Source: an uncultured Mucilaginibacter sp.
GTDB lineage: Bacteria > Bacteroidota > Bacteroidia > Sphingobacteriales > Sphingobacteriaceae
DNA: 64,000 nucleotides
NCBI GenBank assembly: GCA_903915155.1
Contig: CAIWRU010000018.1
Location: 2,344 to 66,343, forward strand
Direction: 5' to 3'
In this document: positions 19,776 through 23,310 of the stretch, piece after piece
Layout of the letters: every line of letters starts with the position of its first letter
How positions within the stretch are numbered: position 1 is the first letter of the stretch
The notes under the pieces: generated by a model
Told to the model about the DNA's origin: nothing
Databases searched by the model: none
What the model saw: only the letters and a program-made list of their open reading frames with translations
Translations under genes and position numbers: made by a program

Positions 19776-20186
19776 ATGAGTAAACTATTGGTGATTGACG
19801 ATTGTGAGACGGATCATTTTATTATGGACAGGATGTTGGGATTGCACGGGCTTTTCCCGGGTAAGGAGTTGTGTTTTGATGCCGAAGCGGCTATAAACCA
19901 ATTGGAAGATGATTGCCTTGACGAAAGTAAATTGCCCGACGTTATTTTCCTGGACCTTTTTATGCCGAGATTTAACGGCTTTAATTTTCTGGACAGGTTC
20001 AGAAAACTATACCCTGCTATCGACAAAACTATACACATTTTTATTATCAGCTGCTCCATAAACCCGGCTGATAAAATAAATGCGGAAAAATACCCCTTTG
20101 TAAAAGGCTATTTTTTGAAGCCCGTAAACATGAATACTTTAAAAAACATTGCACTGGCTTATGGCCAAACCCTGCAATCAGCATAA
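19776..20186 (+). CDS. Single-domain response regulator (CheY-like receiver)
   Basis: LVIDD, IFLDLFMP, IISCS, FLKP. Confidence 0.9.
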   Translation: MSKLLVIDDCETDHFIMDRMLGLHGLFPGKELCFDAEAAINQLEDDCLDESKLPDVIFLDLFMPRFNGFNFLDRFRKLYPAIDKTIHIFIISCSINPADKINAEKYPFVKGYFLKPVNMNTLKNIALAYGQTLQSA

Positions 20187-20192
20187 TATATT

Positions 20193-20345
20193 ATGGAGTA
20201 CATAAATCATTATTTTAGCGCCGGCACCTGGTACCAAAACGTAATTATGTATGCTTTACTGGCAGGGCTGGTTTATGCTAACATTGTGTTGATTAAAAAG
20301 GGTGAGAAGAAAAAGGCTGGTGTAGGTGTGAGGAGAGGTGGGTGA
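20193..20345 (+). CDS. Candidate 50-aa single-TM small protein (below the ORF-track cutoff)
   Basis: Hand translation MEYINHYFSAGTWYQNVIMYALLAGLVYANIVLIKKGEKKKAGVGVRRGG; ATG 6 nt after the receiver gene stop. Confidence 0.4.
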   Translation: MEYINHYFSAGTWYQNVIMYALLAGLVYANIVLIKKGEKKKAGVGVRRGG

Positions 20346-20403
20346 TAAGATGCCGGTCTCTCTCTTTAATTTTATACTAAATGAATTGCAATGTCGAAGC
20401 ATT

Positions 20404-20604
20404 TCATAAATAATGAATATCTTTTATAGCTATAATAGCATCATATCTATTCATAAGTTGGATGTTAGAAAAATCTTTTTTGGAATATCCGGAGTCCAAA
20501 AGATAAACCCGAATCGCTGCATTTTTATTAATGGCTTTTAAATTTCCTAAGTGTAAACTATTTTTATAAATAGCAAATAGTGAGTTTGTCAAATCCTTAT
20601 TCAT
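20404..20604 (-). CDS. Hypothetical 66-aa protein divergent from the C gene
   Basis: ATG ORF in the AT-rich islet; no motif recognised. Confidence 0.4.
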   Translation of the reverse strand: MNKDLTNSLFAIYKNSLHLGNLKAINKNAAIRVYLLDSGYSKKDFSNIQLMNRYDAIIAIKDIHYL

Positions 20605-20634
20605 TGGTAATTTTTAATCAAATATAAAAATAAA

Positions 20635-20667
20635 TTGACACTTATAGTCCGTTGACTTATAGTCAAC
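20635..20667 (+). promoter_or_regulatory. Tandem C-box operator overlapping a TTGACA-N17-TATAGT promoter
   Basis: CACT-TAT-AGTC (20639-20649) and GACT-TAT-AGTC (20654-20664), 15 bp apart; TTGACA 20635-20640; TATAGT 20658-20663. Confidence 0.88.
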
Positions 20668-20686
20668 AAAATACCAACTTGCTCAA

Positions 20687-20908
20687 ATGAGCATAAAGGT
20701 CAAAGTCGGCTTGAGGATAAAAGAACTCCGAAATAAAATTGGTATCTCCCAAGAGGCTTTAGCTAATAAGGCGGAAATTGACAGAACCTATGTTACCGAT
20801 GTTGAAAATGGCAGACGAAATATATCTATTGAAAATCTGGCTAAGCTTATTAATGCTTTAGAAATCCCATTTAAGGATTTTTTCGACTCCCCTAATTTCA
20901 ATAAATAA
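20687..20908 (+). CDS. Controller (C) protein-like XRE/HTH regulator
   Basis: 73 aa; SQEALANKAEIDRTYVTDVENGRRNISI, with the DRTY recognition-helix motif of R-M controller proteins; C-boxes directly upstream. Confidence 0.88.
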   Translation: MSIKVKVGLRIKELRNKIGISQEALANKAEIDRTYVTDVENGRRNISIENLAKLINALEIPFKDFFDSPNFNK

Positions 20909-22914
20909 TGGGAGCATTTTATTCAAATACTCTTGTCGATTTTATTGATGATGATAATGATTCAATTATTGGTTCTCTCACTACACAAGCTGGTGCAGCA
21001 GGTTTTCATCAACAACTACACACCCAAACTTTTTCTTGGATTGAAGAAATTAACATTCTAAAATCTTCATTTATTAAGTTGATTAGTGTTAATCCCAATG
21101 CGTCAACTTTTGGAATATTATTAGAATATCCAATTGCAAGAAGGGATAAAAGGATAGATGCAGTAATTATAGCTAATAATTTGATAATAGTAGTTGAATT
21201 TAAAGTGGGAAAATCAGAATATATAGGAATAGATAAAGAACAATTATTAGACTATTGTTTAGATATTAGGGATTTTCATTTTGAATCGAGAGATAAAATA
21301 ATTGTTCCTTTATTGGTGGCCACTACAGGCAATTCATTGTCAACTGAACTAATTAAAATTGAAAATTTTGTTCAAAATATTGTGTTCGCCAACTCGGAAG
21401 ATTTAAGTGACAAGCTAAATATTGTAATTAACAAGTTTAGTGATAGTACTTTCTTAATTAATTATATTAAATGGAATGAAAGTGACTATTCACCTACTCC
21501 AACCATAGTTGAAGCTGCTCGAACTTTATACGCTGGTAAATCTGTAACTGAAATAACGCGATCACATGCTAAAAGGATCAATTTGACCAAAACTACAGAT
21601 GCTGTTATTAATGCAATAACTTTAGCAAAAGCCAGCAATCAAAAAATTATTTGTTTCATTACAGGGGTACCAGGTGCTGGAAAAACTTTAGCCGGTCTTA
21701 ATATCGCCCATCACAAAGATTTTCAAAATAAAGAGGGTTCCTTATCAACTTTTCTTTCAGGCAATGTTCCCTTAATTAAAGTCTTGCGTACAGCTTTATC
21801 GCGTGATGCAAATAAGAAATTAAAAAAAGCAGGATCTTCAGCTAAAGTAAAAGAATCCGAAAGAATTATTGCTTTCATAGAGAATGTTCACAATTATTTT
21901 AAGTTGTACTATACAGACGAAAAAATACCGAATAGAAAAATTGCTAATAATAAAATTGTAATTTTTGACGAGGCACAAAGAGCATGGGATGCAGAACAAT
22001 CGATGAAAAAATTTCAAAGAAATTCTTCAGAGCCAGAAATGATGTTTGAGATTATGAATAGGCATGATGATTGGGCTGTAATTGTTGCTTTGGTTGGCGG
22101 TGGACAAGAAATAAATACTGGTGAAGCCGGTTTACCGGAATGGGGAAGAGTTATTGAAGAAAAATATAATAATTGGAAAGTATATATATCGCCTCAACTC
22201 AAAATTGGAGATCATAGTACCGGTAACCTTACATTATTCAACATCCTGCCAAAAAATGTCGAAATTATTGAAGATCCATCATTGCATTTAAATGTATCCT
22301 TACGCTCTTACAAAGCCGAAGATTTATCTAATTGGGTTAGTCTTGTCTTGACAGATAAATCAAATGAAGCAAAAGAAATTTTTAAAAATAAATTATCCAA
22401 ATATCCAATAGTGTTGACTAGAGATTTAGAAAAAGCAAAAAGTTGGCTTAAAGATAAATGTCAAGGTTCAAGAAGAATGGGCTTAGTTGCGAGTTCAGGT
22501 GGTAGGCGATTAAAAGCAACAGGCTTAGATGTCAGGACAGAATTCGAACCTGCTGAATGGTTTTTAAATGACCGCAATGATGTGAGATCATCCTATTATT
22601 TAGAAATTCCGGCTACTGAATACAAAGTGCAAGGATTAGAATTGGATTGGGCGGGCGTATGCTGGGATATTGATTTATTCAGGGATAAGAACAAATGGAT
22701 TTTTAAAACTTTTTCAGGATATAAATGGAATAACGCAAATACTCTTGAAAAGAGGAAATATATAATTAATAAATATAGAGTTCTGCTAACAAGGGCAAGA
22801 GAGGGAATGATAATTTTTATTCCCAAAGGAAGTAGTGACGATCATACGAGAAACCCAGGCCATTACAATTCGATAGTGGATTATCTTATTTCCTGTGGGG
22901 TACCTGAACTATAA
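20908..22914 (+). CDS. PD-(D/E)xK nuclease + SF1 helicase (DUF2075 / Schlafen group 3-like) protein
   Basis: N-terminal E...RID...VEFK...QLLDY; Walker A GVPGAGKT; Walker B IFDEAQR; GGGQEI; EYKVQGLELD; YRVLLTRAR; TAATG overlap with the C gene. Confidence 0.88.
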   Translation: MGAFYSNTLVDFIDDDNDSIIGSLTTQAGAAGFHQQLHTQTFSWIEEINILKSSFIKLISVNPNASTFGILLEYPIARRDKRIDAVIIANNLIIVVEFKVGKSEYIGIDKEQLLDYCLDIRDFHFESRDKIIVPLLVATTGNSLSTELIKIENFVQNIVFANSEDLSDKLNIVINKFSDSTFLINYIKWNESDYSPTPTIVEAARTLYAGKSVTEITRSHAKRINLTKTTDAVINAITLAKASNQKIICFITGVPGAGKTLAGLNIAHHKDFQNKEGSLSTFLSGNVPLIKVLRTALSRDANKKLKKAGSSAKVKESERIIAFIENVHNYFKLYYTDEKIPNRKIANNKIVIFDEAQRAWDAEQSMKKFQRNSSEPEMMFEIMNRHDDWAVIVALVGGGQEINTGEAGLPEWGRVIEEKYNNWKVYISPQLKIGDHSTGNLTLFNILPKNVEIIEDPSLHLNVSLRSYKAEDLSNWVSLVLTDKSNEAKEIFKNKLSKYPIVLTRDLEKAKSWLKDKCQGSRRMGLVASSGGRRLKATGLDVRTEFEPAEWFLNDRNDVRSSYYLEIPATEYKVQGLELDWAGVCWDIDLFRDKNKWIFKTFSGYKWNNANTLEKRKYIINKYRVLLTRAREGMIIFIPKGSSDDHTRNPGHYNSIVDYLISCGVPEL

Positions 22915-23114
22915 CTCCTCGTTTCCTTACTGTGTACATCGGCCATAGTGTAAAATTAAACAACATTTTCGTGGTTTGGTTCGGGGTTCCTGGCCCGGGT
23001 TGCGCGTGGGTAGTAAAAAAATCGCGTTCACGGTTATTCACCACTTTTGAACGCTGGAAAATGTTTAAACTTCTGTTTATTAACGCCTTAAGTGTTTGGG
23101 GGTGTATGGGTAGC

Positions 23115-23213
23115 GTTTATGTTTGTTTCGGTTTGTTTGGGCTCGTTTGGGTACTGTTTATGGGGTGTTTAGGCCCTGTTTAGGTGGTGTTTGGGTTCGT
23201 TTAGGCTATGTTT
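23115..23213. other. Helically phased GTTT tracts in a G/T-skewed segment
   Basis: GTTT at 23115, 23125, 23135, 23145, 23156, 23167, 23178, 23189, 23199, 23210 (95 bp over 9 intervals). Confidence 0.7.
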
Positions 23214-23310
23214 GGGTTATGCCAATTTGCTGATATCCAATGAAAAGTGAACGCGCCAAAAAGCATTCAAAACAGGCAGTTTGATAGTTGGCGGTTTGCG
23301 TGCATCGGCT

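Follow-up and report, generated by a model that had tools for sequence, protein, structure and literature searches.

Restriction-modification (R-M) systems often carry a small controller (C) protein, and the question raised here is what such a protein is doing in front of a nuclease gene that has no methyltransferase beside it. The locus lies in a 64-kb stretch of DNA from an uncultured Mucilaginibacter sp. (contig CAIWRU010000018.1), which is referred to throughout as the window, and consists of a gene for a 73-residue helix-turn-helix (HTH) protein followed by a gene for a 668-residue nuclease-helicase, the effector. The original prediction for this locus held that an R-M regulatory module had been recruited to a nuclease-helicase and that the pair formed an undescribed defence system. 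The first part stands, in that there is a real controller with an operator, a coupled gene and no methyltransferase partner, whereas the second does not, as the locus is a known defence gene in a regulated form. In our judgement it is probably a two-gene, horizontally acquired anti-phage module, composed of an R-M-type C protein and an Nhi-like single-protein nuclease-helicase, that is self-regulated and independent of methylation, with the C circuit setting dose and timing.

The nuclease-helicase and its family

The effector matches the PADLOC model PDC-S41 (PDLC05014) almost from end to end, with residues 2-668 falling on profile positions 3-653 of 657 (E 2.6e-245). The PDC entries of PADLOC are untested candidates that arose from guilt-by-embedding (bioRxiv 10.1101/2024.01.29.577857), and the term PDC-S41 was not found in the literature searched, the supplements of that preprint included. 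The combination of an N-terminal nuclease with DUF2075 is, though, the architecture of Nhi from Staphylococcus epidermidis (Bari et al., bioRxiv 10.1101/776245), and it is shared by Nhi-like, a verified anti-phage defence that was named after Nhi and that was tested as system SG141, a protein of 611 residues from Bacillus cereus FSL H8-0482 (Millman et al. 2022, bioRxiv 10.1101/2022.05.11.491447). Compared with the first 399 residues of the verified protein, taken from supplement file 11 of Millman et al., the window protein displays 28% identity over 398 columns (E 1e-36), an alignment that covers the nuclease and the first half of the helicase. A B. cereus plasmid protein, located with tblastn, is 88% identical to verified Nhi-like, and the alignment of this ortholog with the window protein runs the full length of both (28% identity, 667 columns, E 9e-60). 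The ortholog itself matches PDC-S41 (E 1.4e-114). Because the B. cereus ortholog and the window protein both match this model and also align with each other, PDC-S41 and Nhi-like constitute one family, in which the window protein is a distant member. On the strength of this homology the effector is of a known kind, a full-length homolog of a verified anti-phage protein. The original prediction had stated that no named system with this architecture was known, a statement that Nhi and Nhi-like overturn, and the homologs of the window protein do form an already named system.

The correspondence with the B. cereus system is close in design. Nhi-like likewise has an N-terminal PD-(D/E)xK nuclease followed by a DUF2075 or superfamily 1 (SF1) helicase, and both proteins are methyltransferase-independent effectors. 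However, the B. cereus protein belongs to another clade, that of the window being centred on the Bacteroidota, and its locus has no adjacent regulator, whereas the window gene overlaps a C gene and has an operator upstream. Nhi itself (SERP2475 of S. epidermidis) and the lactococcal AbiO also provide immunity through a single protein with nuclease and DUF2075 helicase parts, but neither has a meaningful sequence match to the window protein beyond the P-loop; the PADLOC model for AbiO covers about 120 residues of the P-loop region only (E 2e-3).

The residues expected of both activities are in place. As predicted, the N-terminal region harbors the motif set E73, R82-I83-D84, V96-E97-F98-K99 and Q112...Y116, which is followed by Walker A, Walker B and SF1 motifs, including a VLLTRAR motif with arginines R629 and R631; all were verified by residue position. 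The catalytic residues are also conserved, as the prediction needed them to be: in 70 homologs of 42-72% identity from many phyla, E73, D84, E97, K99, Q112 and Y116 are invariant, as are the Walker A loop, D354-E355, Q357-R358 and R629/R631. The helicase half corresponds to Pfam PF09848 (SLFN-g3_helicase, formerly DUF2075; residues 248-639, E 6.2e-76), while NERD (PF08378) is found above its cutoff in homologs at 53% identity.

Structural models are consistent with this assignment. The AlphaFold2 model of the whole protein has a predicted local distance difference test (pLDDT) score of 89.3 and a predicted template modelling (pTM) score of 0.85, and its top Foldseek matches in the PDB are SF1B-type helicases, namely RecD, human SLFN11 and SLFN14, Dna2 and Upf1 (E 1e-9 to 1e-6). 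The N-terminal domain modelled alone (pLDDT 88) gives weak matches (E 3e-3 to 1e-1), and all of these, VC1899, McrC, Can2/Card1, Bax1, Hjc and a Cas4-like protein, are PD-(D/E)xK nucleases. By sequence, the PDB yielded only the P-loop match 2r2a for the whole protein, and a search with a profile of the N-terminal domain gave no match. The Schlafen group 3 proteins SLFN11 and SLFN14, which stand among the top structural matches, likewise have PF09848 as their helicase domain, and antiviral or genome-guarding roles are found on both sides. Their N-terminus, in contrast, is a Schlafen/AlbA_2 RNase domain, a different fold from the PD-(D/E)xK domain of the window protein, and identity between the two groups is only about 8-12%.

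The controller protein and its operator

As judged from its homologs, the 73-residue protein is a genuine R-M-type controller of the PvuII-like DR(T/S)Y group. It comprises a bare HTH_3 domain in Pfam (E 4.7e-16), PADLOC ranks Control_protein first among its models (E 9.6e-21), and the closest sequences in the PDB are C.BclI (8.5e-14), C.AhdI (1.7e-12) and C.Esp1396I (2.5e-9). Its recognition helix reads D32-R33-T34-Y35, and in this it resembles the C proteins of Type II R-M systems (C.PvuII, C.BclI, C.AhdI and C.Esp1396I), which are likewise small HTH proteins with a DRTY-type helix. C proteins are described as regulators of Type II systems (2025 paper, PMC12255303), and the cases listed in a 2025 review come from Type II systems and, once, from a Type I locus (PMC12707154). 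The gene order is also that of PvuII-type circuits, where the C gene lies upstream of, and overlaps, the nuclease gene. The two arrangements differ in what is controlled: PvuII-type circuits act on a Type II restriction endonuclease and time its appearance against that of the methyltransferase, whereas the window C gene precedes an ATP-dependent Nhi-like nuclease-helicase in a module that has no methyltransferase. A second, weaker relative of the C protein is present in the genome (G000:C89:557-757; 34% identity, E 1.9e-8), its frame broken by a TAA codon.

Upstream of the C gene is a double C-box, CACT-TAT-AGTC-CGTT-GACT-TAT-AGTC, that agrees with the PvuII-type consensus at 15 of 16 specified bases. 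This consensus, GACT-N3-AGTC-N4-GACT-N3-AGTC, has a conserved central GT, and a CGTG spacer is typical of the DR(T/S)Y class (Mruk et al., PMC2175313). The window operator shares the 26-bp double C-box and the central GT of PvuII-type operators, and its CGTT spacer is close to the CGTG that goes with DR(T/S)Y-helix proteins. At up to two mismatches the pattern has a single match in the window and none in 100 shuffles, and it is the single such site in the 3.73-Mb, 99.7%-complete genome. Among eight aligned loci of what we call clade A, a 30-nucleotide operator block is near-invariant between variable flanks, and in one of them TAT is replaced by CAT in both boxes together. Outside these loci the picture changes. 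At up to three mismatches the strict PvuII C-box is confined to clade A and Schlesneria, and variant palindromes occupy its place in the Flavobacterium and Rheinheimera clades, so that a single operator shared by every C-positive clade is not proposed. The 57 sampled loci that have no adjacent regulator contain best matches with 4-8 mismatches, which is background.

Two pairs of promoter-like elements overlap the operator, and both are assigned a promoter function tentatively, from their sequence. Candidate promoter 1 is the best sigma-70-like match between 20150 and 23400, at 11 of 12 bases of a consensus that is E. coli-type while the host is one of the Bacteroidota. Candidate promoter 2, whose TTGACT overlaps the spacer and half-box 2A, retains its spacing in clade-A loci while the intervening bases vary. 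The strong C-dependent promoter of pvuIIC has a -35 element that overlaps half-box 2A, and it gives rise to a leaderless mRNA (PMC2175313). The geometry of candidate promoter 2 mirrors that of this leaderless C-dependent promoter, and the mRNA of the window locus is probably leaderless as well.

Locus layout and base composition

The two genes of the module are plus-strand open reading frames (ORFs), evident both from the ORF listing and from the raw sequence, and their coordinates are collected in Table 1. They meet in the sequence TAATG at 20906-20910, where the stop codon TAA (20906-20908) shares one base with the start codon ATG (20908-20910), an overlap through which the C gene and the effector gene are presumably coupled in translation. 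The HTH protein with its DRTY motif, the two C-boxes and the TAATG junction had all been predicted, and the ORFs and the sequence bear out each of them.

Table 1. Features of the C protein and nuclease-helicase locus, in window coordinates
Feature	Position	Strand	Basis or detail
Double C-box operator	20639..20664	+	OL 20639-20649; spacer CGTT 20650-20653; OR 20654-20664
Candidate promoter 1	TTGACA 20635-20640 / 17 nt / TATAGT 20658-20663	+	Interleaved with the C-boxes
Candidate promoter 2	TTGACT 20652-20657 / 17 nt / CAACTT 20675-20680	+	Read by eye; 6 nt before ATG
C protein gene, 73 aa, single HTH_3 domain, DRTY recognition helix	20687..20908	+	Pfam, PADLOC and PDB sequence matches
Nhi-like nuclease-helicase, 668 aa (PADLOC PDC-S41)	20908..22914	+	PDC-S41 and B. 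cereus homology
PD-(D/E)xK nuclease core, residues ~60-130	21085..21297	+	Invariant residues, NERD in homologs, weak Foldseek matches
Nuclease residues	E73 21124-21126; D84 21157-21159; E97 21196-21198; K99 21202-21204; Q112 21241-21243; Y116 21253-21255		
SLFN-g3/DUF2075 SF1B-like helicase-ATPase, residues 248-639	21649..22824	+	Pfam, invariant motifs, Foldseek
Walker A, GVPGAGKT, residues 253-260	21664-21687		
Walker B, IFDEAQ, residues 352-357	D354-E355 21967-21972		
Divergent ORF, 66 aa	20404..20604	-	Within the low-G+C islet; possibly an accessory gene

The module sits in an islet (20350-22930) with a G+C content of 32.3%, as against 43.5% for the window, and this is the lowest-G+C stretch of 2.58 kb in the window, about 4 standard deviations under the mean. 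The AT-richness claimed in the original prediction is therefore real, and the counts on which it was based, 19/60 G+C in line 21001 and 33/60 in line 23461, were correct. So was the description of the surroundings. For an identical metagenomic contig, the neighbours in the precomputed Pfam annotation are all of the housekeeping kind (ECH, B12-binding, Amidase_2, Response_reg, Lactamase_B, FtsX, RbfA and M23), with no methyltransferase, specificity subunit or integrase among them. A motif scan of the window agrees, as no N6/N4 or C5 methyltransferase motifs were present in any ORF of at least 150 residues, and no tRNA or integrase was found close to the islet.

The borders of the islet are less distinct. 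Comparison with genomes of the same genus shows that the pair of genes for a metallo-beta-lactamase (MBL) fold protein and FtsX is kept, that the left flank has no synteny, and that neither a clean empty site nor exact borders can be defined. A 15-nucleotide inverted repeat that brackets the islet (20365-20379 and 22946-22960) was considered as an insertion scar, but it does not occur in the orthologous loci L003 and L104 and is attributed to chance. Only in the window, L003 and L005 does an Amidase_2 gene adjoin the module. The divergent 66-residue ORF has counterparts of 46-47% identity at the same position in L003 and in G020/L104, the sole other genome of the genus to carry the module; it has no match in Pfam, PADLOC, NCBIfam or PHROGs, and may be a clade-specific accessory gene.

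Two further features of the flanks were recorded. Between the islet and the MBL-fold gene, at 23156-23218, lie four copies of the motif GTTTAGGnnnTGTTTrGG, phased at 11 nucleotides. Between the host-like amidase region and the islet, positions 19776-20345 encode an orphan receiver-domain protein (136 residues, G+C 39%) and an ORF of 50 residues. Neither ORF has a counterpart in the approximately 10 kb upstream of the MBL gene in five other genomes of the genus, in a 19-kb stretch around the G020 module, or in L003 and L005.

Distribution of the family and its regulators

The family is large, with more than 8000 word-based candidates, 808 clusters at 50% identity that reach E<=1e-30, and at least 551 loci among GTDB species representatives. 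The module itself is found in only 2 of the 25 genomes of the window's genus, the gene tree mixes phyla in a manner that is incongruent with taxonomy, and homologs are carried by Bacillus megaplasmids, Persicobacter plasmids and one phage record. Together with the low-G+C islet, this patchiness in the genus, the incongruent tree and the plasmid and phage homologs argue that the module is accessory and horizontally acquired.

Regulators and methyltransferases were counted in 80 representative loci of the family. An XRE- or C-type HTH gene lies directly upstream of the effector, and often overlaps it, in 23 of them, which are spread over at least five separate clades in three to four phyla. These include a Sphingobacteriaceae/Chitinophagaceae clade to which the window belongs, a Flavobacterium clade, Rheinheimera, and Schlesneria, the last beside a Flavobacteriales group with a different HTH subfamily; single cases occur in Akkermansia, Ruminococcus and the Pyrinomonadaceae. 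The presence of a regulator is clustered on the tree and needs at least eight gains or losses to be explained. In three Flavobacteriales metagenome-assembled genomes (MAGs), the C protein upstream of the effector is replaced by a second XRE-family HTH subfamily, marked by VNIVGxRVKEAR... (L016:1163-1402, L017:7750-7995 and L019:209-475), and no PvuII-type C-box was seen upstream of these three genes.

Methyltransferases are rare in the same sample. Three C5 enzymes and one N6/Eco57I-type enzyme lie within 8 kb of the effector, as counted by a motif prefilter, which could miss atypical enzymes, followed by Pfam. A methyltransferase is accordingly near at most 4 of the 80 loci and is not a conserved partner of the family, so that the homologs, in line with the original prediction, are not always paired with a cognate enzyme. 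In a Calditrichaceae MAG (L035:6166-7991) and a Brocadia MAG (L066:6334-7993), a C5 DNA methylase (PF00145) is encoded upstream of the effector on the same strand. Both loci also encode, likewise ahead of the effector, a homologous protein of 107-123 residues that has no Pfam match. The gap to the effector is 4-6 nucleotides, and the whole looks like a three-gene arrangement unlike that of the window.

A Pfam survey of neighbours was made for 28 loci (L003-L030), the first of three neighbour batches. The 148 neighbours that have a match fall into 145 Pfam families, with no recurrent partner. HNH_4 endonucleases appear among the neighbours of three of these loci, and in one locus a second SLFN-g3_helicase protein stands beside the first. 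Across the 80 loci, a protein of about 100 residues, starting MPNIKFSYLYRDGGNYK..., adjoins the Nhi-like gene in nine (L003:4400-4702, L004:1948-2250, L005:7438-7734, L006:7543-7734, L014:7411-7803, L030:7596-7916, L025:10008-10313, L038:9990-10307 and L039:5398-5721) and is a possible facultative partner. It may be divergent upstream, co-directional upstream, or 16-34 nucleotides downstream; it has no Pfam match and was not found in the window.

Alternative explanations

Several observations weigh against a self-regulated Nhi-like defence module. Identity to the verified Nhi-like protein is only 28%, and that protein falls outside the window clade. With the model for Nhi proper (PDLC02372), the match is confined to the P-loop region (residues 6-124 of the helicase half, E 1e-3). 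The promoters were assigned by an E. coli-type consensus although the host belongs to the Bacteroidota, whose promoters differ from those of E. coli. The regulator is dispensable for function, given that some 70% of the family do without an adjacent one. Finally, members in the 28-locus batch are mostly found amid housekeeping genes rather than in recognisable defence islands.

The main rival explanation is that the effector is a Type IV, modification-dependent, restriction enzyme that cuts modified foreign DNA only, and hence needs no methyltransferase, with the C protein merely tuning its expression. We regard this as unlikely. It would account for the lack of a methyltransferase partner, and it draws on the weak resemblance of the N-terminal model to McrC, on the HNH_4 proteins near 3 of the 28 loci, and on the occurrence of DUF2075 NTPases beside modification-dependent endonucleases (PMC6765204). 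However, Pfam scans revealed no recognisable modification-reading domain of the SRA, PUA or DUF3427 kind, and the nuclease, a linker and the SF1B core with its insertions between them account for the 668 residues. Nor is dependence on modification described for Nhi and Nhi-like, the validated proteins closest to the effector.

It is less probable still that the locus encodes a toxin-antitoxin or abortive-infection pair, in which an HTH antitoxin binds the nuclease-helicase toxin and represses the operon. The overlap of a small XRE-family HTH gene with a larger, potentially toxic gene has the look of such a pair, and there are weak NCBIfam matches of the HTH protein to the HipB, HigA and Y4mF antitoxins as well as the weak AbiO match on the helicase part. 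Yet all of the antitoxin matches are far under their curated cutoffs, and the HTH protein, whose length equals that of C.BclI and C.AhdI, has no extra segment with which to bind a toxin. Moreover, the effector appears to need no neutraliser, because about 70% of the family, verified Nhi-like included, have no HTH partner.

We give very little credence to the idea that the effector supplies the restriction activity of an R-M system and that the matching methyltransferase gene lies at another site in the genome. The appeal of this explanation is that R-M systems are the setting in which C proteins have otherwise been recorded (PMC12707154). Against it, a genome that is 99.7% complete contains a single C-box and hence no second C-controlled locus; only four methyltransferases lie within 8 kb of the effector in the 80 family loci; the effector has no target-recognition domain; and its validated relative acts as a single gene. 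Least credible of all is a housekeeping repair or recombination nuclease-helicase of the RecD/Dna2 type with a local repressor by chance, which would suit the top structural matches and the housekeeping neighbours but not the presence of the gene in 2 of 25 genomes of the genus, its low-G+C islet, a phylogeny scrambled across phyla, or its membership of a validated defence family. These last three explanations are each contradicted by specific results.

A proposed mechanism

In the self-regulated Nhi-like module that we favor, basal transcription would give one mRNA and, from it, a little C protein and a little effector. The C protein would bind OL first and would there activate the promoter whose -35 element overlaps half-box 2A, as in PvuII, giving a transcript that, as in pvuIIC, is probably leaderless. 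At a higher concentration of C protein OR would also be bound and the promoter would be shut. Because the C protein would activate from OL and repress from OR, the circuit would keep the dose of a potentially self-damaging nuclease-helicase low and fixed, and in a newly entered host the enzyme would appear only after a delay.

The effector, in turn, would distinguish self from non-self without methylation, as has been proposed for Nhi. Nhi is thought to sense phage single-stranded DNA-binding protein (SSB) or replication intermediates, and then to nick and unwind DNA (PMC12904381). By analogy, the window protein may act on phage replication intermediates or SSB-coated single-stranded DNA, which it would unwind and either nick or degrade.

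Significance

The effector on its own adds little, since it belongs to a large family for which phage defence by one relative is already on record. What is mildly interesting is its regulation: a textbook R-M controller and operator stand before a nuclease that has no methyltransferase, and an HTH gene is paired with the effector in about a quarter of the sampled loci. We found no account, in the literature searched, of an Nhi-like gene driven by a C protein, and the pairing is apparently undescribed but unsurprising. There is also a consequence for annotation, as such loci will be mislabelled by pipelines that treat the combination of a Control_protein and a nuclease as a Type II R-M system with parts missing.

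The locus offers a natural system in which to ask what C circuits do where there is no methylation race, and how toxic Nhi-like enzymes become when derepressed. One possible answer, which we put forward tentatively and at somewhat less than even confidence, is that C circuits are not a speciality of R-M systems but a portable dose-and-timing cassette, captured several times by Nhi-like genes that have no methyltransferase, in at least five clades and with variant operators, among the Bacteroidota, Pseudomonadota and Planctomycetota and probably others. If this is true, the core job of a C circuit would be to limit the autotoxicity of a nuclease and to pace its establishment once the genes have been transferred horizontally, and the head start given to a methyltransferase would be just one of the uses of such a circuit. 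By the same reasoning, Nhi-like enzymes may be intrinsically dose-sensitive towards host DNA.

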